Source: Thermoanaerobaculia bacterium (GTDB lineage Bacteria > Acidobacteriota > Thermoanaerobaculia > Multivoradales > DATKCC01). From it: a stretch of DNA of 64,000 nt. The stretch is taken from contig JANRLG010000189.1 of assembly GCA_033762835.1 (NCBI GenBank), positions 12,185 through 76,184 of the forward strand, in the 5' to 3' direction. How positions within the stretch are numbered: the stretch's first letter is position 1; each line of letters starts with the position of its first letter. The notes beneath the pieces are model-generated. The model was not told where the DNA came from. It made no database searches and saw only the letters and a list, made by a program, of their open reading frames with translations. This document shows, piece after piece, positions 47,563 to 55,193 of the stretch. Both the position numbers and the translations under genes were made by a program.

Positions 47563-48906
47563 CTACTGCCGGCCACTGACCACCGCCATCGACTCATCCA
47601 GCGCCGCCAAGAAGCGGTCGAGCTGGTCGTACCCGATCGTCAACGGCGGCTCGACTCGCAGGGTACGGGCGTTGATGTAGGTACCGCCGATCAGGATCTG
47701 ACGCGCGAAGAGTTCCTTCGCCACCTCGTAACCCTTCTCGTTGTCGCTGAACTCGAGGCCGAGCATGAGGCCGCGGCCGCGCCATTCGACGAGAAGGTCC
47801 GGGTACTTGGCGCCCAGTTCGGCGAATTTGCCCAGCAGGTACTCGCCCTTTTCGCCCGCCTGGCGCGGCAGGTCTTCCTCGAGCAGCACGTTGAGGGTGG
47901 CGATGGCGGCAGCGCAGGCCACCGGGTTGCCGCCGAAGGTGGTGGTGTGGAGGAACGGGTTCTCGATGTAGCGCTCCCAGGTCTTGGGCGTGCCGACGAC
48001 CGCGCCGATGGGCATGACACCGCCGCCGAAGCCCTTGCCCAGCGCCATCAAGTCCGGCGTCACGCCGTCGTGTTCGCAGGCGAACATCTTGCCGCTCCGG
48101 CCCATGCCGCTCTGGATTTCGTCGAAGACCAGCATCGCACCGTAGCGGTCGCACAGCTCGCGCGCCGCCGCCAGGTAACCCGGCGGGGCGACGTTGATGC
48201 CACCTTCGCCCTGGATCGGCTCGATCACCACCGCGGCCACGCGGTCGCCGGTGAAGTCGAAGGTCTTCATCATCTTGGCGAGCACGTCGGTGTCGCCCCA
48301 CGGCAGGTGGGTCCAGCGCAGCAGCGGCAGGAAGGGCTCGCGGAAGACCGCCTTGGAAGTGCCGCCCAAGGAACCGAGGCTCTTGCCGTGGAAGGCCCCC
48401 ACGGTGCCGATCAGGTGGTGCCGACCGGTCGCCAGCATGGCCATTTTGAGGCACCCTTCGATGGACTCGGTGCCCGAGTTCGAGAAGAAGGCGTAAGTGA
48501 GATCCCCGGGAGTGATCAGCGACAGCAGGTGGGCGAGGTAGGTGCGCAGGGGGTCGATCAGCTCCTGGGAGTGGATCGCCTGGCGGTCGAGCTGCTCGCG
48601 CACCGCCTTCATGACCTTGGGGTGGCGATGGCCTACGACGTAGATGCCGTAGCCGCCCAGGATGTCGATGTACTCCCGGCCGTTGATGTCGCGGAAGACT
48701 GCGCCCTCGTCTTCCCATTCGACCGCCGTGTAGTCGGTAGAGACCGATTTGCGGTATTGCAGGAAGCCCTCGTTGACGTGGTCGGTCCAGTAGCGGACGG
48801 ACTCCTCGACGACTCGCGCCCGCTCGTCCGGCGAAAGTTCTTTCTTGCCGATCAAATCGAGGACATAGGCGGATTTGCGCGCCGCCGCGGCGAGGTCTTG
48901 GGCCAT
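47563..48906 (-). CDS. patA: Putrescine aminotransferase (class III PLP)
   Basis: HVNEGFLQYRKSV, GGYGIY.VGHRHP, HSQEL.DPLR, FDEIQSGMGRSGK, GKGFGGG, ENPFLHTTTFGGNP. Confidence 0.88.
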   Translation of the reverse strand: MAQDLAAAARKSAYVLDLIGKKELSPDERARVVEESVRYWTDHVNEGFLQYRKSVSTDYTAVEWEDEGAVFRDINGREYIDILGGYGIYVVGHRHPKVMKAVREQLDRQAIHSQELIDPLRTYLAHLLSLITPGDLTYAFFSNSGTESIEGCLKMAMLATGRHHLIGTVGAFHGKSLGSLGGTSKAVFREPFLPLLRWTHLPWGDTDVLAKMMKTFDFTGDRVAAVVIEPIQGEGGINVAPPGYLAAARELCDRYGAMLVFDEIQSGMGRSGKMFACEHDGVTPDLMALGKGFGGGVMPIGAVVGTPKTWERYIENPFLHTTTFGGNPVACAAAIATLNVLLEEDLPRQAGEKGEYLLGKFAELGAKYPDLLVEWRGRGLMLGLEFSDNEKGYEVAKELFARQILIGGTYINARTLRVEPPLTIGYDQLDRFLAALDESMAVVSGRQ

Positions 48907-48966: not shown

Positions 48967-51483
48967 TCAGGCGCTCCGGCGGCGATTCCACGCCGCGGCG
49001 CCCGCGGCCAGCAAAGCGAGTCCCGCTCCCGAGCCCCGCGGGGGGAATCGCCGCGGAAAGGGCGTCAGCTCGCCGTCGCCGAGCACCACGACCCCCGCCC
49101 AGGCTTCCGCCGGGTATCCCGCTGCGAGCAGCTCGGCGCGCACGGCGCGGGCCGCCGTCGAGACCCCGCGGCCCTGGGCGAGCTGGCGGTAGAAGCGGGT
49201 GAAAAACGCCCGGGCATCGTCGTCGCGCAGAGGCCACAGGCTGGCGACGACGGTGCGCGTCCGCCGGCCCTCGAAGAAGGCCCGTGCGAGGCTCAAGACC
49301 CCTTCGCCGCGCAGGACAACGCCGGCGGCACTTTCGCAGGAGGACAACACGACGAGCTGGCCGGCGACCGGCAGGCCCGTGATCTCCCCGAGTTCGAGCC
49401 GGCCGTCGGCGGTTTCCCCGCCGCCCAGGTAGATGGCCGAGCGCTCGGCGTCGTCTTCATCAACGACGGCGTGGGTGCCGAAGTGGAGGACGCCCGCGAG
49501 CTGCCGCGGCTGGCCGAGCAAGATCGCCTCCGCTGCCGACTCGCCGAGGTCGAGCCGGCTGCCCGCCCCCAGGATACCGGCGATCTCCCGGCCCTCCCGG
49601 CGCGCGTGGGGCAGGGGCCGCAGGATCTGGCCGCCCGGCCCCGCGGGCAACGGCGCCGGGTCCGCCACGATCCACCCCGGCCGGTCCGGGTGCTCCGCGG
49701 CAGCCTGCCGCCAGCGCTGCCAGAGTGTCGCCGAGGGTACCCGGGTGACCGCGAAACGCTCGCCCAAGGGCGGCGCCTCGGCCCGTTCCCGCAGCAGCTC
49801 GAAGGGCAGCTTGTGCAACACGTCGTCGGGCACCAGCACCAGCCGACGAACCGTTCCCGGCAGCTCGGCCAAAGCCGGCCCCAGCAAGTCCCCATAAAGC
49901 GCCACCGCCGTCTCTTCCTCCCGCCCATCCCGCCCCGTCGTCAACCCCACGAACGTCCCTATCGCCTGCCGCCAGAACGTGCGATCCCGCTCCAGCCGGT
50001 GGACTTTCACCCCCTCCCGCGTGACCACCAAGAGCCAGCTGCCACCCCCGAAATCCCCGGACCAATCCACCCAAGGTGCGATCTGGTAGGAGAGCAAAGC
50101 CTCGTCCGGCGCCAAGGCAGCGCGGACCTCGTCGAGGGTCGCGAAGTCGTCGGCCGTGGGAGCGGAGGTCGACAGCTGATCGAGCAGCGAGCGGGCGCGC
50201 ATGCGCTCGGTGACCTGGAAGGCGGTACCAACAGAATCGCTCGTTTCCTTTGCCGCCGAGGCCATGTCCAGGTGCCGGCCGGACAGCCAGAGATAGTCGT
50301 CAACCCAAGTGGAGAAGAGCTCCGCTCTGCGATTTCGCTCTTTCTGACCCTTTCGGAGCTGTTCGATCTCGCTCAGGGCTTGACTCGCCTGCTCGCTGCG
50401 CTGGCTCGATGGCGAATACTCCCACGAAGCCCTCATCAGCTCCCTCAGTGCGTTAGTCTCCGTCAGAGCGTCCCCTATTCCACGGGCAAGCCTGACTGCC
50501 TCTTGAGCTGTGGCAAAGGCCGCATCCGGTCGAGTTCGGCCGAGTACCCGCGCCAAGCCACTCAGGCAAAAGGACCGAGTTCTGTCATCTGGCGCTGCGT
50601 CGAGACATGCCTCGAAGTGGCGTTCGGCAGTTTGGCCCGCTGAGAGGGCCGCCAGTATCCAAAGGGAGTAGGCTTTGCTCTGGTCCTGAGAGTTCAGTCT
50701 GGCCGTGGCTTCGACTGCTTGCACGGCGACCTCGCGCACAGATTCACGATCGACTTCGACCGTATTTAGCATCCACTTGTCAAATGCAGATCTGGCAATT
50801 CCGTATCTTGCCATCGCTGTCTCGCCAGGCGTCCTGGCCGACTGAAGTGCTTCGCGAAAAACAGCGCCAGCTTCATCGAAGCGTCCAAATTCCAGGAGGG
50901 CGTGGCCCTGGTAACGCAACACCTCGAGCCACCCAGCGGTTTTCTCCACCCCCACGATATTTCGAATGGCATGGATGGCGACGAGTTCGAAATCCAGTGC
51001 TCCGGTGTATTCTGCTGTCATAAGCAGGTCGATGAATTCTTTCAGGCGCGGGAGTGGCTGCGTCTTCTGAACCGCCGCATCCACTGCCTGGGACAGCTGG
51101 TCTTCGGCCGCGCTTCTTCGATCTAACTTCAGGTAGAGTCGAGAAGCATTGAAACCGGCTAGAACATCGCCCCACCCCGGCTCGCTGCTGAGTTCGAAAA
51201 GTCTCGCTGCCTCAATAAACAGCTGACTGGACTTCTCGAACTCTTCTCGCTCCTCAAACGACTGGCCTTCGAGGTAGGCAAGGCGCGGATCGGCTGGGTA
51301 GCGGTCGCGGACGGCCACCAGCAGCGAAGGAAGAGCTGGGTCGGCGAGGTGTCGGTAAACACAAGAGAGCGCAGCGCTTCCTAGGGAAGGTTCGTAGGCT
51401 GCCAAACAGCTCTCGACTTCCAAGGCCGCCCCAGCTGTGGTGCCGCTGAGTATCAGGATGACTGCTAAGCAGAGACGGTTCAC
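48967..51483 (-). CDS. Exported TPR-like + CHAT (caspase-like) protease
   Basis: Signal peptide; ERMRARSLLD, LVPDDVLHKLPFE, HFGTHA (His), LSSCESA (Cys), VASLW, WAGVV; hydrophobic tail + RRR. Confidence 0.9.
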   Translation of the reverse strand: MNRLCLAVILILSGTTAGAALEVESCLAAYEPSLGSAALSCVYRHLADPALPSLLVAVRDRYPADPRLAYLEGQSFEEREEFEKSSQLFIEAARLFELSSEPGWGDVLAGFNASRLYLKLDRRSAAEDQLSQAVDAAVQKTQPLPRLKEFIDLLMTAEYTGALDFELVAIHAIRNIVGVEKTAGWLEVLRYQGHALLEFGRFDEAGAVFREALQSARTPGETAMARYGIARSAFDKWMLNTVEVDRESVREVAVQAVEATARLNSQDQSKAYSLWILAALSAGQTAERHFEACLDAAPDDRTRSFCLSGLARVLGRTRPDAAFATAQEAVRLARGIGDALTETNALRELMRASWEYSPSSQRSEQASQALSEIEQLRKGQKERNRRAELFSTWVDDYLWLSGRHLDMASAAKETSDSVGTAFQVTERMRARSLLDQLSTSAPTADDFATLDEVRAALAPDEALLSYQIAPWVDWSGDFGGGSWLLVVTREGVKVHRLERDRTFWRQAIGTFVGLTTGRDGREEETAVALYGDLLGPALAELPGTVRRLVLVPDDVLHKLPFELLRERAEAPPLGERFAVTRVPSATLWQRWRQAAAEHPDRPGWIVADPAPLPAGPGGQILRPLPHARREGREIAGILGAGSRLDLGESAAEAILLGQPRQLAGVLHFGTHAVVDEDDAERSAIYLGGGETADGRLELGEITGLPVAGQLVVLSSCESAAGVVLRGEGVLSLARAFFEGRRTRTVVASLWPLRDDDARAFFTRFYRQLAQGRGVSTAARAVRAELLAAGYPAEAWAGVVVLGDGELTPFPRRFPPRGSGAGLALLAAGAAAWNRRRSA

Positions 51484-51887
51484 GGAGGTGGAATCGGGTC
51501 AACTTTGCCGGTCCCGCTACCGGTTCCTGGGGGAGAAACGCCATTCGTTTCTTCCCAGCCGAAGCCGGTGCCGATACCCGTCGAACCAGTTTGGATCTCC
51601 ACGGTCCCGGTGCTCCCGTCACCCTCCTCTCCCTCGTTGTTCCGGGGAGCATTCGCCATCAACATGGCGAAGCCTTCTTGGCCCTCCTGAGGGGGCGGCG
51701 GCGACGGGCTCTTGCCGGCCGGAAACACGAATCGTTGATGGTAACGCCTCGTCTGAAACTCAATGAAGAAGAAGTACTTACGGCTACCCCACTTGAAGAA
51801 GGGGATCTTCACCGCGGCGGGGCCGAAGTTGCCAGAAGATGTCGCGCCGGTCCCGGCGCCTTGAGACCCAGAATCTGAACTCGCCAT
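51480..51887 (-). CDS. Small Gly/Pro-rich protein translationally coupled to the CHAT gene
   Basis: GGAGG SD; GTGA overlap with the CHAT start; NGVSPP motif. Confidence 0.65.
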   Translation of the reverse strand: MASSDSGSQGAGTGATSSGNFGPAAVKIPFFKWGSRKYFFFIEFQTRRYHQRFVFPAGKSPSPPPPQEGQEGFAMLMANAPRNNEGEEGDGSTGTVEIQTGSTGIGTGFGWEETNGVSPPGTGSGTGKVDPIPPP

Positions 51888-52053
51888 ACCAAGATCCTCC
51901 CCGATTTTCGGGCAAGCCTACGACGGATCAGCCGTCGTGGCGCATCGCGCGGAAACTGCTGCGGATGCAGTCGAGGACGATGGAGAGGCTGGAAGATCCT
52001 CACAAACTAGAAAAAGACCCCGACGACTGCACTTCCCGCCAACGGCTCCCCGA

Positions 52054-52082
52054 TTGACCGTATGACCGGGTCGGCGTACTCT
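52054..52082 (+). promoter_or_regulatory. Sigma70-type promoter for the two small peptide genes
   Basis: TTGACC-17 nt-TACTCT, the same hexamers as the atp promoter. Confidence 0.6.
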
Positions 52083-52114
52083 CTGCTTCGCTTGATTCAA
52101 GAAAGGGGCACGGG

Positions 52115-52330
52115 TTGTTCAGTCTGACACTTATCCTCGCCTTGTTTTTCGGCAGCCTCGGTGCAATGCAGAAGAGTCCTCCCTCGCAAGCTCCTGGAGT
52201 TAGACTCGATGCGGCCACACAAAATGGAGTTACCCCACCGGCAGATGGACCCGGGTCCGGTCCCCCCGGCAGTACCGCATGGAGCGAGGGAGTCGCTCCT
52301 CCAGACACAGGCCACCCTGAGGACAACTGA
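52115..52330 (+). CDS. Small secreted Pro/Gly-rich peptide precursor 1 (71 aa)
   Basis: GAAAGGGG SD with TTG; signal peptide; NGVTPP and EGVAPP motifs. Confidence 0.6.
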   Translation: MFSLTLILALFFGSLGAMQKSPPSQAPGVRLDAATQNGVTPPADGPGSGPPGSTAWSEGVAPPDTGHPEDN

Positions 52331-52421
52331 GCGAATAGGAAAGCCCGTCTACGATGCGGCGTCCCACGTCCGCCGGCTTTTCCGAGGCCAGATCGGTTCA
52401 AGAACGAAAGGGGCTGCGACC

Positions 52422-52610
52422 ATGAAGAGCGCTTTCCTGATCTTCGCGCTTCTGTTCGGCCAACTCGCCGGGCTTGCTTGGGAGTTCTCCGTTGCGGCAG
52501 GGTCGACACCGGCGGATGACGACAAGTCTGCTGGCCCTCCAGGACAGACTGGGGTCACACCGCCGGATATCGACCCTTATCCGGGCCCGAAGCCTCCCCC
52601 TGCGGGTTAG
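52422..52610 (+). CDS. Small secreted Pro/Gly-rich peptide precursor 2 (62 aa)
   Basis: GAAAGGGGG SD with ATG; signal peptide MKSAFLIFALLFG; GPPGQTGVTPPD. Confidence 0.65.
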   Translation: MKSAFLIFALLFGQLAGLAWEFSVAAGSTPADDDKSAGPPGQTGVTPPDIDPYPGPKPPPAG

Positions 52611-52634
52611 CCAGCGGTCGAAGCCCCTCCCCCG

Positions 52635-53384
52635 TCACTCCTCCAGCGTCAATCGAAACGTCGGCGGGCAGGGCGAGCGGGTGCCGTCGGGGAAGACGGC
52701 TTCCACTTGCCACACGAGGTGGCTGGCGGGGCGGAGTTTGGTGAGCTTCTCGGCCGGGACTTCGTACTCAGTCGCGGTCAGGCCGGTGACCTGGACCACG
52801 GTGTCGAGGCCGGAGGTTCGGATCGAGAGGTCGTAGTAGACCGCCTGGGGGACGGGTTTCCAGGCGACCTTGAAACCCTTGCGGGTGACGGGGGCGTTGT
52901 CGCGTACCAGGGATTCGATCAACGAGCCGGTCGCGGCGGGCGGGCCCGGCACCGCGGGTGACGAGGCGTCGGGCACCGGCCGGTCGCCCGTGCCGCGGTA
53001 TCCCGGGTCGTCCGTGGGCGGCGACTTGGGCAGGAACACGGCGAAGCCGAGGGCGCCGACCAGGAGGGCGGCGGCGGCGGCCCAACGTGGGTCCCACCAA
53101 CTCGAGCGGGCCGGGCGCAGCGGCAACGGGGCCACCGTGCCGGAACCTGCCGTGTCGTTCAGCTTCTCGCGCTCGAGGGCGAGCGCCAGGCGCCATTCCT
53201 CGGCACATTCGGCGCAGAGCGCCAAGTGATCCACCAAGCGGGCGGTAACCTCGGGAGCCAGGCGGCCCGCCGCGGCGTCCCAGATTTTCTCCGGGTCGGG
53301 ATGGTCGGCGGGCGGTGGGCCGACCGCGGGCGCCTGCCAGGCGGCGCGCAATCGGTCGATCAAAAGGTCGTCTTCGGTGTTCAC
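52635..53384 (-). CDS. Membrane anti-sigma factor (zf-HC2, TM, periplasmic beta domain)
   Basis: HLALCAEC (HxxxCxxC), TM WAAAAALLVGALGFAVFL; GTGA coupling to the sigma gene. Confidence 0.85.
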   Translation of the reverse strand: MNTEDDLLIDRLRAAWQAPAVGPPPADHPDPEKIWDAAAGRLAPEVTARLVDHLALCAECAEEWRLALALEREKLNDTAGSGTVAPLPLRPARSSWWDPRWAAAAALLVGALGFAVFLPKSPPTDDPGYRGTGDRPVPDASSPAVPGPPAATGSLIESLVRDNAPVTRKGFKVAWKPVPQAVYYDLSIRTSGLDTVVQVTGLTATEYEVPAEKLTKLRPASHLVWQVEAVFPDGTRSPCPPTFRLTLEE

Positions 53385-53938
53385 GGCGCGTGTCCCTTGT
53401 CCTCTAAACATTGGCGGAGATCCGCCATGCCACGGTAAATCAAGTTCTCCGCCTTCTTGGCGTCCCAACCCAGCCGCCGCCCGACATCGACGACGCTGTG
53501 GCCTTGCAGGCGAAGCGTCACAGCTTGGCGCCGGGAGGCGATCAGGGCGCCTAGACACCCGCGAATCGCCGAACCCAGCTCGCGGCTCGCCGCGTGATCG
53601 CTGGGACCGGGAGATCCGGTGGGTAACTCGATCGCACCCGCTTCATCCTCGATCGGCACTTCCCGGCGTCGGCGACGGCGTCGAATTTCATCGACTACCG
53701 CGCTGTACGCCGCTCTCTTCAGGTAAAACGAAGAGAGCGCCGTTTCCTCCTCACGCCGCCGTAACACGTCCACCACCCGCAGCAACGCCACCTGCACCAA
53801 GTCCTCGGACTCGGCCGTCAGCCAGCTCGGGCAACTGTGATTCACCGCCCGCGTGAGAGCCGCCCGCAACTCGCGGTAAAGCGAGTCGGGAAGCTCACGC
53901 CGTGCTGGATCTCGAACAACTGAAGGGACCGTCATCAC
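53381..53938 (-). CDS. ECF RNA polymerase sigma factor
   Basis: SEDLVQVALLR, AYSAVVDEIRR, region 4 AENLIYRGMADLRQCL. Confidence 0.9.
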   Translation of the reverse strand: MMTVPSVVRDPARRELPDSLYRELRAALTRAVNHSCPSWLTAESEDLVQVALLRVVDVLRRREEETALSSFYLKRAAYSAVVDEIRRRRRRREVPIEDEAGAIELPTGSPGPSDHAASRELGSAIRGCLGALIASRRQAVTLRLQGHSVVDVGRRLGWDAKKAENLIYRGMADLRQCLEDKGHAP

Positions 53939-54072
53939 CGCCCGGGAGTCTAGCCCGGATTGCCCCCGGGCGAACTTTCTCTGCCCGCCTGACAGATCGA
54001 CGCCCCGGATTCCGTCGTCATGGTTTGTGGGCGAAAGGATCGCTCACGACGACCCCCGAGGAGGGAGCTCCC

Positions 54073-54507
54073 ATGACCGTGATCGACCTTTCCGTGTTGT
54101 CCGCCTTCTGGCTCGGAGGCCATGCCCGCGCCGCCGCCGAGCGCCTCTACGCCAACCATCCCGACTGGGCGCTGCCCGTGGCCTGGCGTTGCGATTTTCG
54201 GCGCCAGCTCGACACTTGGGTGGGCTGCGAGCAGATCACCCCCGTCGACGCCGACCAGATCTGGAACGCCGTGCTCTGCCAGGTGGCCGACCGCGAGTAC
54301 TTCTGCGGCTCGCTCGACGTGCTCGAACTCGTCGCCCGCCATGGCCTCGGTCGGTTCGACGCCGAGGTGGTGTCCTTCGCCCGCGCCCGTGGCCAACGCT
54401 TCCACACCGCCAACCCCCGCCTGGCGGCACTCTTTCCCGACCTCGCCACCCTCCTAACCGACGTCGCCCCCGAGCGCCGCGTCTGGGTCGCCCGAAAGGC
54501 GGCGTGA
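54073..54507 (+). CDS. Orphan, degenerate PIN-domain (VapC-like) protein
   Basis: MTVIDLSVL, WALPVAWRCDFR, FDAEVV, HTAN; SD GAGGAGGGAG. Confidence 0.65.
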   Translation: MTVIDLSVLSAFWLGGHARAAAERLYANHPDWALPVAWRCDFRRQLDTWVGCEQITPVDADQIWNAVLCQVADREYFCGSLDVLELVARHGLGRFDAEVVSFARARGQRFHTANPRLAALFPDLATLLTDVAPERRVWVARKAA

Positions 54508-54514
54508 TCATGAC

Positions 54515-54543
54515 TTGTATTCAGCAAAAAAATCTTGTACGGT
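54515..54543 (+). promoter_or_regulatory. TA operon promoter
   Basis: TTGTAT-17 nt-TACGGT in an AT-rich patch with a CTTGTA direct repeat. Confidence 0.5.
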
Positions 54544-54562
54544 CCAAGGCGGAGGTTTCATC

Positions 54563-54784
54563 ATGCGCACCACCGTCACCGAACGGGGCCAAACCGTCGT
54601 CCCCGCGAAGATTCGTCGCGACTACGGCATCGGAACGCAGTCGACCCTCGAATGGATCGACGACGGCCACACGATCCGCGTCGTTCCGCTCCCGCCGGAC
54701 CCGATCCGCGCGGCCCGCGGCAGCTCCAAGGGGCTCGGGCGACGCCTCGCGGAGGAGCGGGAACGTGAGCGCAGCGAAGCCTGA
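54563..54784 (+). CDS. AbrB/MazE/SpoVT-family antitoxin
   Basis: MRTTVTERGQTVVPAKIRRDYGI; GGAGG SD. Confidence 0.88.
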   Translation: MRTTVTERGQTVVPAKIRRDYGIGTQSTLEWIDDGHTIRVVPLPPDPIRAARGSSKGLGRRLAEERERERSEA

Positions 54785-55193
54785 TCGCTTCTTGCTCGAC
54801 ACCTCCGCGGTCCTCGTCCTGACCGACGAAGATCCGGGCTGGGACTTCGTGGAGAACCTGCTCGAGCGCGCCCGCGAGGGCGAAATCGAGGTCGTGCTCT
54901 GCGCGGTGTCGTTGATGGAGCTGTACTACGTCGCGTTACGCGAACAGGGGGAGGACCCGGCCGCGCGACTAGTGGCCTTGGTCAAGGCGTGGCCGATCTC
55001 GTGGATCTACCCCGATGAGCGCATGCTGCTCGCGGCGGGCCGGTTGAAGGCCCAGCATCGCCTGTCCTTCGCCGACGCCGTGGTGGCCGCCGCCGCGGCT
55101 CGGCGGCGGGCCGTCCTGGTTCACCGCGACCCGGAATTCGAGGGTTTGGCAGCGGCCGTGGCGCGCCAGGCTCTGCCCTACCGGGGGCGCTGA
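54765..55193 (+). CDS. vapC: PIN-domain toxin (VapC)
   Basis: LLDTSAV, SLMELYY, LSFADA, LVHRDPEF. Confidence 0.9.
   Translation: MSAAKPDRFLLDTSAVLVLTDEDPGWDFVENLLERAREGEIEVVLCAVSLMELYYVALREQGEDPAARLVALVKAWPISWIYPDERMLLAAGRLKAQHRLSFADAVVAAAAARRRAVLVHRDPEFEGLAAAVARQALPYRGR

Follow-up and report, generated by a model that had tools for sequence, protein, structure and literature searches.

A split sigma factor/anti-sigma/CHAT protease locus with attached small proteins in a Thermoanaerobaculia bacterium

Pathways built on sigma factors of the extracytoplasmic function (ECF) type form a major route of signal transduction in bacteria. In the DdvS/DdvA system of Myxococcus xanthus, an ECF sigma factor is paired with a zinc-binding anti-sigma (ZAS) factor to which a periplasmic tetratricopeptide repeat (TPR)-CHAT region is fused; the sections of the report available to us propose that CHAT acts as the site-1 protease on the juxtamembrane linker, followed by RseP, and place fused DdvA-like forms in Myxococcota and one Comamonas only (PMC11506125). 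The same sections describe Craspase, in which Cas7-11 together with the TPR-CHAT protein Csx29 cleaves Csx30, with ties to a pair resembling an ECF sigma factor and its anti-sigma (PMC11506125). According to the accessible part of another study, the ECF54 group has CHAT-domain neighbours and a proposed proteolytic control, no anti-sigma, and a carboxypeptidase and a subtilase as further neighbours (PMC8999054), while in the ECF reclassification's main text CHAT does not occur (PMC7826278). Finally, in the DimA-AlgW-MucA-AlgU pathway of Pseudomonas aeruginosa a microprotein activates the site-1 protease, which leads to anti-sigma proteolysis, as stated in the available part of that paper (PMC12780092). 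Here we describe a locus at positions 48967-53938 of a 64,000-nucleotide (nt) stretch of a Thermoanaerobaculia genome (contig JANRLG010000189.1), called the window below, in which a predicted ECF sigma factor, a membrane anti-sigma factor and an exported TPR-CHAT protease are encoded by separate genes, with three small genes between the latter two. We read the locus as a split DdvA-like proteolytic signalling module in which the small proteins act as modulators, and assign this reading a probability of roughly 45%.

An open reading frame (ORF) listing combined with a Pfam scan of the window places the genes for the sigma factor, the anti-sigma, ORF-C and CHAT on the minus strand, and ORF-A and ORF-B on the plus strand between the anti-sigma gene and ORF-C. 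The features, with protein lengths in amino acids (aa), are as follows:
53381-53938, minus strand: ECF sigma factor, 185 aa (Pfam Sigma70_r2 and Sigma70_r4_2; TIGR02937)
52635-53384 (GTG start) or 53411 (ATG start), minus strand: zf-HC2 single-pass anti-sigma factor (zinc motif, hydrophobic helix, PF13490 below cut-off)
52422-52610, plus strand: ORF-B, predicted secreted proline-rich peptide of 62 aa with TGVTPPD (signal-peptide-like N-terminus)
52115-52330, plus strand: ORF-A, predicted secreted peptide of 71 aa with a TTG start, NGVTPPA and EGVAPPD (signal-peptide-like N-terminus)
52041-52067, minus strand: candidate ECF-type promoter GGTCATA-N16-CGTT, directed towards ORF-C and CHAT (pattern match)
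51480-51887, minus strand: ORF-C, 135 aa, two degenerate repeats and a C-terminal TNGVSPPG (disordered, no signal peptide)
48967-51483, minus strand: exported TPR-CHAT protease, 838 aa (PF12770, TPR_12, signal-peptide-like start)

By profile comparison the first two genes have the hallmarks of an ECF sigma factor and a ZAS-type membrane anti-sigma. The sigma protein scores 51.6 bits against TIGR02937 (sigma70-ECF, cut-off 42.9) and possesses regions 2 and 4 only; in Pfam, PF04542 reaches 24.1 bits (cut-off 24) and PF08281 23.2 bits, just below 25.7, and no specific sigma subfamily of NCBIfam scored above its cut-off. The zinc motif HLALCAEC of the anti-sigma can be read directly as H63-x3-C67-x2-C70 (numbering from 53414), with PF13490 at 18.9 bits, under the 22.2 cut-off. 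The protein has one hydrophobic helix, the predicted transmembrane segment at about residues 111-128 (53031-53084), and a putative periplasmic Fn3-like domain at about residues 174-259 (52638-52895), whose model (pLDDT 88.3) is an Fn3/Ig-like sandwich with Fn3-like best matches in the PDB (TM-score 0.5-0.55). Between helix and ectodomain lies a juxtamembrane P-G-Y-R (residues 137-140, 52995-53006), and a motif of this kind, P-x-hydrophobic-R (P-V-Y-R type), recurs in 15/16 aligned relatives and, by eye, in 16/17 readable loci across the phylum. The GTG at 53384, which overlaps the TGA stop of the sigma gene as GTGA, is the more likely start as compared to the ATG at 53411; the ESM Atlas entry for the anti-sigma also begins at the GTG.

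The CHAT gene product contains a full-length CHAT domain (PF12770, 162.3 bits, profile 2-289/289) at residues 524-803 (49075-49914), upstream of which lies the TPR region; TPR_12 was also matched. A predicted signal peptide (about residues 1-21) is followed by Cys26 and Cys41, and a signal-peptide-like start with a subsequent cysteine is found in the window protein as well as in 16/18 orthologue reading frames. The sites of the presumptive dyad, H667/H671 (HFGTH, 49471-49485) and C716 (LSSCE, 49336-49338), are invariant in 19/19 aligned CHAT sequences, with C26 nearly invariant. Judged by the complete domain and the conserved His and Cys, the protein would thus belong to the caspase-like proteases of clan CD. 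A preliminary description of this DNA had already claimed the coupled ECF sigma/zf-HC2 pair and a CHAT protease with intact His and Cys residues and a signal peptide, and both claims are borne out here. Among PDB chains, the TPR part matches TPRs of the LGN/Pins type (E 1e-12), which bind extended peptides. The genome as a whole holds 23 CHAT matches above the Pfam cut-off. Contigs C314, C132 and C103 each contain neighbouring pairs of them, and close to those on C314 and C132 there are weak anti-sigma-like matches.

The preliminary description had treated sigma factor, anti-sigma and CHAT as a linked unit, and comparison with other genomes agrees with this. Among 20 stretches fetched around CHAT orthologues, the 18 that contain one module each were mapped, and in all of them sigma and CHAT genes are co-stranded in the order sigma to CHAT. 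An anti-sigma match lies between the two at E <= 1e-5 in 17/18 loci, that of locus L022 being weak (E 1.3e-5). In the relatives, same-strand sigma and anti-sigma genes precede CHAT orthologues that are 40-50% identical, and the anti-sigma and CHAT genes, 1.15 kb apart in the window, are adjacent. The sigma orthologues beside the CHAT orthologues share 32.9-66% identity (17/18 at 40-66%), and a search of genome contigs with the sigma factor returned only two Asticcacaulis loci, which are 30% identical. The anti-sigma ectodomain family is present in 48/401 sampled genomes of the phylum and 45/228 genera, a tally that takes in two unpublished genomes, G322 and G448, which enter into no other result. 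When 18 phylum-wide loci were picked by this ectodomain alone, a sigma gene was adjacent in 17 of them and a same-strand CHAT gene followed downstream in 13. Going by these sequence comparisons, the core of sigma, anti-sigma and CHAT is widely distributed across the phylum, and the three large genes very probably share a function. In G391, a genome of this phylum, the anti-sigma ectodomain family is represented six times, as if the module had expanded into paralogues, and locus L032 (G011:C6:190000-209900) holds two sigma/CHAT modules within ~12 kb, in both of which sigma and CHAT are on opposite strands.

The space between anti-sigma and CHAT is occupied differently from lineage to lineage. 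None of the 18 phylum-wide ectodomain loci has a small protein of the ORF-C family, and in three other families of the order a protein of 331-422 aa with a BTRD1 repeat (PF17660, polyglycine-hydrolase-like) is encoded there, with signal-peptide-like starts by reading:
L022:5293-6558, BTRD1-protein gene
L028:6284-7360, BTRD1-protein gene
L033:10580-11572, BTRD1-protein gene
Because these BTRD1 proteins replace the small protein elsewhere, we consider the accessory position variable and the three-gene core as the unit. Two further loci have other genes here: locus L026 carries a 189-aa signal-peptide protein without a family between anti-sigma and CHAT, and in a member of the window's own bacterial family (G002, L027:4224-7283) an 881-aa AAA_16-TPR-LuxR regulator and an SCO4226-like protein lie between the anti-sigma and the small protein.

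In the window's own bacterial family this position belongs to ORF-C and its homologues. The ATG of ORF-C is preceded at 8 nt by GGGGAGGA, and its stop codon overlaps the GTG start of CHAT as GTGA; on account of these GTGA stop/start overlaps, the gene pairs sigma/anti-sigma and ORF-C/CHAT are each coupled. In a large protein collection the homologues P0002 (91% identity) and P0003 (56%) both retain TNGV[SA]PP, and the small ORF of the relatives has a GGAG-type ribosome site and terminates in, for instance, KESRWELGFFARKVTTESATPPDWDGGGP or YEVGFFVRTETVSPPDYGG. With a hidden Markov model (HMM) of this tail, 8/10 genomes of the bacterial family, among them that of the window, gave matches at E <= 1e-9; the ninth has a diverged copy, found by reading, and no such locus was seen in the tenth, an 82%-complete assembly of 2.4 Mb. 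Outside the family, the model gave two weak matches in the order's 290 other genomes. The position of the family's small protein is always between anti-sigma and CHAT. Across 30 conserved codons of four sister-genus species, differences at codon positions 1/2/3 amount to 20/28/92, a bias that points to purifying selection on the small protein. The preliminary description expected motif-bearing small ORFs at homologous loci. Small ORFs of the ORF-C family are there, in 9/10 genomes of the bacterial family, but what they conserve is not GVxPP, a tail specific to one lineage.

A profile of the full protein family collects 42 representatives (50% identity) at E <= 0.001 from 1.84 billion proteins, all of them 59-162 aa long. 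Their core is a once- or twice-repeated R-x-E-x-G-F-F-x-R-K (ExGFFxRK). Many start with M-S-T-x-E-R-F (M-S/T-T-x-E-R/Q-F), in place of which the window's ORF-C has MASSDSGS, and none of the N-termini is hydrophobic. A (V/A)(T/S)PP tail is present in some of the 42 only, others ending in acidic Thr/Glu/Asp stretches; since the ExGFFxRK core is conserved and the tail occurs only in some members, GVxPP is a lineage feature and not a signature of the family. ORF-C belongs to no family in Pfam or NCBIfam and has no usable match in the ESM Atlas, a Pfam scan of 43 family members gave a single weak match (1/43, E 0.0094), and metagenome scans for relatives (protein, alignment A1) yielded no confirmed locus. 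The Atlas pLDDT of ORF-C is 0.33, and an AlphaFold2 model from 43 sequences (pLDDT 56.7) lacks secondary structure. As modelled, ORF-C is a disordered small protein of cytoplasmic type. The preliminary description had all three small products exported, which fits the signal-peptide-like starts of ORF-A and ORF-B; ORF-C, however, has no signal peptide, and the ORF-C family is therefore not an exported peptide. A complex prediction for CHAT residues 22-838 with ORF-C, a single run without controls, scored 0.23 against a mark of 0.32.

A candidate ECF promoter, GGTCATA-N16-CGTT, is located ~150 nt upstream of ORF-C. In the sister genus all four genes lie on one strand as a single operon that starts at the sigma promoter, and GTCATA-N17-CGTT sits in a conserved block upstream of the sigma gene in 4/4 genomes. 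In the 5.58-Mb genome the site at 52041-52067 is the sole match to GTCATA-N15-18-CGTT on both strands. In five relatives there are 1-3 matches apiece, and 0-3 for a reversed control pattern; their other matches to the promoter pattern were taken as chance, as they lie inside long frames or share no common downstream gene. The candidate promoter fits the layout of the window, where the operon is interrupted by ORF-A and ORF-B and a separate copy of the site stands before ORF-C and CHAT. A sigma-70/terminator scan gave no promoters and two terminator-like sites, with 3.7 expected.

That this candidate promoter points at ORF-C and CHAT and not at the sigma gene could also mean that CHAT is the regulated output. 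That is, an envelope cue acting via another protease would lead to production of an exported caspase-like effector for remodelling, defence or competition, with ORF-C as a cytoplasmic guard or immunity-like inhibitor and ORF-A and ORF-B as periplasmic substrates. Staphostatins provide an analogy for a protein like ORF-C protecting the cytoplasm, and ORF-C, coupled to CHAT and devoid of a signal peptide, is what such a guard would look like. Most of the 23 CHAT matches in the genome come without such a sigma/anti-sigma pair, and the accessory genes between anti-sigma and CHAT differ by lineage, with BTRD1 in three other loci, which also suits an effector. However, a same-strand CHAT gene right after the anti-sigma, as in 13/18 phylum loci, is typical of co-functioning regulators, the operon of the sister genus implies that CHAT is made together with the sigma and anti-sigma, and the fusion in DdvA speaks for a direct relation between anti-sigma and CHAT. 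We regard CHAT as a mere output as somewhat unlikely.

According to the preliminary description, three small genes between anti-sigma and CHAT share GV[TSA]PP, and this is indeed the case: six-frame translation of the whole 5.58-Mb genome (11.16 million residues) contains 84 matches, four of which fall inside ~1.04 kb at the locus (51528, 52226, 52289 and 52551; one in ORF-C, two in ORF-A, one in ORF-B), as compared to ~0.02 expected. The clustering is not chance. The four copies are, however, not independent, as the small genes are related, ORF-A and ORF-B being paralogues with an upstream repeat at 305-nt spacing. No GV[TSA]PP was found within 4 kb of the genome's other 22 CHAT matches. Window positions 50000-52500, which hold the N-terminal half of CHAT and the small genes, have a GC content of 0.58-0.61, as compared to 0.65-0.75 on either side.

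ORF-A and ORF-B are 37.5% identical, that is weak paralogues, and the C-terminal ends of ORF-A and of the ORF-C homologue P0003 are closely alike. The sequence GAAAGGGG precedes the ATG of ORF-B by 8 nt and the TTG of ORF-A by 6 nt. Shine-Dalgarno sites, third-position bias and independently called homologues together argue that ORF-A, ORF-B and ORF-C are real genes. An ORF-B homologue, P0005, is identical to ORF-B over the first 15 residues, and its first 22 residues equal those of P0004, a 95%-identical ORF-B variant; the mature part has diverged, yet NNGMLPPPDD and a proline-rich end are retained. Among the order's 300 genomes, a profile built on ORF-A and ORF-B matched strongly in the window genome alone, the other 16 matches being weak (~18-21 bits, E > 0.001) and mostly inside long frames. 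A related contig of 2820 nt (X1/X2; two runs, two studies) matches ORF-C and ORF-B, with the segment 52004-52395, which holds ORF-A, replaced by 87 other nt, while a contig of a third study, X6, covers the region from ORF-A to ORF-B. Given strong matches in one genome only and the replacement of ORF-A in the related contig, both genes are very young and ORF-A is variable between strains. On our reading, the bacterial family inserted an ORF-C-family gene directly upstream of CHAT, and this species also gained ORF-A and ORF-B.

Such youth raises the question of whether ORF-A and ORF-B do anything. They may be functionless products of local duplication, leaving ORF-C as the only small gene that matters. 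Strong matches confined to one genome of 300, the insertion/deletion difference at ORF-A between contigs, its TTG start and uncharged n-region, and the GC dip over this part of the window would all be expected from such products. Nevertheless, the GAAAGGGG ribosome sites before both genes are rightly spaced, independent gene calls in other assemblies recovered ORF-B with its frame intact despite strong divergence of the mature part, and the motif is kept in all copies, making lack of function very unlikely in our view. The preliminary description had favoured a specific role, namely that the exported motif peptides are activating ligands of the TPR region, upon which CHAT cuts the anti-sigma. 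This would be peptide-triggered, perhaps cell-to-cell, signalling, comparable to outer-membrane protein tails with DegS or DimA with AlgW. Signal-peptide-like N-termini with a common motif, an ORF-B homologue with a kept signal peptide but a diverged mature part, the pattern of secreted signalling peptides, and the likeness of the TPRs to LGN/Pins would agree with this role. DimA/AlgW, moreover, is a known precedent for a small protein that activates a site-1 protease, although of another protease family (available part of PMC12780092). On the other hand, strong peptide matches occur in one genome of 300 only and the module works without the peptides elsewhere, ORF-A is absent from one related contig, and the small protein that is conserved, the ORF-C family, is not exported; we therefore consider activation by the peptides quite improbable.

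The sequence of ORF-A allows yet another possibility. The start of its mature part, KSPPSQAPGVR...GPPGST, aligns with residues 128-162 of the anti-sigma, KSPPTDDPGYR...GPPAAT, and in both proteins the aligned stretch follows directly after the hydrophobic helix. In a single BLASTP comparison of ORF-A with the anti-sigma linker the E-value is 0.010, and 0/500 composition-preserving shuffles reach the score. On this basis, ORF-A looks like the linker of the anti-sigma. No such likeness was seen by the shuffle test for ORF-B, for ORF-C or for any of seven orthologous small proteins when each was compared with its own anti-sigma factor, and a general mimicry model fails because the test is significant for ORF-A only. 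A control reminiscent of securin, in which the ORF-C family and the secreted peptides would serve as pseudosubstrate or decoy regulators of a CHAT that cuts the linker after the conserved Arg, and ORF-A (KSPP..PG[VY]R..GPP) would be a strain-variable threshold decoy, is unlikely in our view. If it were true, the idea of CHAT as a site-1 protease proposed for DdvA would become open to direct test in a split system whose parts can be taken separately.

The split DdvA-like signalling module that we favour would work as follows. The anti-sigma would keep the sigma factor at the membrane, while the periplasmic TPR-CHAT protein would sense a protein or peptide cue via its TPR superhelix and, as the site-1 protease, would cut the anti-sigma in its exposed juxtamembrane linker, at the conserved hydrophobic-Arg. 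An RseP-type site-2 protease may then complete the release of sigma; the genome has four M50 (S2P, site-2 protease) matches. Free sigma would drive ORF-C and CHAT from GTCATA-N16-CGTT, which would provide feedback. ORF-C may be a co-translated partner of CHAT, either an inhibitor or a chaperone of the precursor, and ORF-A and ORF-B could act as periplasmic competitors or ligands, ORF-A possibly as a decoy of the anti-sigma linker. Cleavage of the anti-sigma by CHAT, which the preliminary description had put forward, is a reasonable conjecture and has a published precedent as a hypothesis only, in DdvA (available sections of PMC11506125). What the sequences show directly is the gene content and its synteny, the motifs, the coding constraint and the variation between strains, whereas each biochemical step of the model is inferred.

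Several observations weigh against this model. In those sections, the authors of the DdvA study report that they could not show the proposed cleavage. The CHAT domain has no sequence match among solved chains in the PDB, and because it does not match the solved CHAT structures, the likeness to DdvA is architectural only. In 5/18 phylum-wide loci CHAT was not found in the fetched stretch, although in two of these the contig ends on one side within ~0.2 kb beyond the anti-sigma gene. The promoter pattern was set after both sites had been seen, and no match to it was found upstream of the sigma gene in the window itself, in the other genomes of the bacterial family examined or in the other genera. 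As to the small proteins, the GVxPP tail is missing in many of the 42 representatives, and ORF-C, lacking a signal peptide, would meet mature periplasmic CHAT only if it acts before export or is itself exported by another route. A role of the ORF-C family as mimic of the anti-sigma linker was rejected in 8/8 tests, 59-470 of 500 shuffles reaching the score.

As the protease is separate from the anti-sigma and the module is common in the phylum, the reaction could be rebuilt from purified parts. What is new is the link of a caspase-like protease with an unannotated family of small disordered proteins, none of whose 42 representatives exceeds a Pfam threshold. ORF-A and ORF-B, in turn, are a clear example of secreted peptides that arose very recently next to a signalling module.

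The flanking genes may be mentioned briefly. Immediately downstream of CHAT, a 447-aa ORF (47563-48906) is class-III aminotransferase-like by eye and probably an unrelated housekeeping gene. Divergent from sigma, the window (53902-55193) contains a 201-aa ORF without a family and a MazE/AbrB-type antitoxin ORF (54515-54784; PF04014 at 24.0 bits, just below cut-off), followed by an open frame that is PIN-like by eye, a candidate only.

How does the locus relate to the systems described so far? The preliminary description had drawn an analogy to Rap-Phr and related RRNPP systems, in which a cytoplasmic TPR receptor binds a processed, re-imported peptide encoded adjacent to it. The analogy is poor, because the TPR protein is itself exported here: it carries a signal peptide, and Pfam reveals neither an oligopeptide permease nor a regulator output domain in the locus. 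Regulated proteolysis of the membrane anti-sigma RseA begins when the C-terminal tail of an outer-membrane protein activates the periplasmic site-1 protease DegS, and proteases of the DegS family sense such a motif through their PDZ domain. In the present case, Pfam finds TPR and CHAT only, and no trypsin-like or PDZ domain, so that the likeness to DegS and AlgW would be one of logic only. Likewise, DimA acts through a C-terminal WTF motif on a DegS-family serine protease (available part of PMC12780092), whereas a TPR-CHAT cysteine protease and an internal proline-rich motif are found here. In the sections at hand, Craspase is cytoplasmic and RNA-guided (PMC11506125), as opposed to a locus with a signal peptide, a membrane anti-sigma and no CRISPR genes, and ECF54 lacks an anti-sigma (PMC8999054), while a canonical ZAS anti-sigma is predicted in our case.

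Among eukaryotes, separase and securin, both cytoplasmic, combine a caspase-like protease with a TPR-like helical region and a small disordered pseudosubstrate inhibitor. ORF-C is likewise predicted to be disordered and is co-translated with CHAT; ORF-C and mature CHAT are, however, predicted in different compartments, and the two systems are likened by description only. Full-text searches of the literature brought up no account of a split sigma/anti-sigma/exported-CHAT module or of its small proteins; the supplementary tables of PMC7826278 and PMC11506125 may bear on this.

The closest known system is DdvS/DdvA, which, as far as the available sections go (PMC11506125), has in common with the present locus an ECF sigma factor, a single-pass zinc-binding anti-sigma and a periplasmic TPR-CHAT part with a His/Cys dyad. 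DdvA fuses ZAS domain, transmembrane segment and TPR-CHAT in one polypeptide, whereas here the anti-sigma (~250 aa) and CHAT (838 aa) are the products of separate genes, and the locus is hence a split form. DdvA-like proteins are further characterised by a CHAT domain without the three-helix motif and by a dimeric, arrow-shaped structure. Unlike DdvA, the anti-sigma has its own Fn3-like ectodomain, and no defence-island context was seen at this locus. For DdvA, the sections at hand describe no small-protein partner, while three small genes are present here. Taken together, the split arrangement is a variant of the known DdvS/DdvA-type system, with a new small-protein family attached to it.

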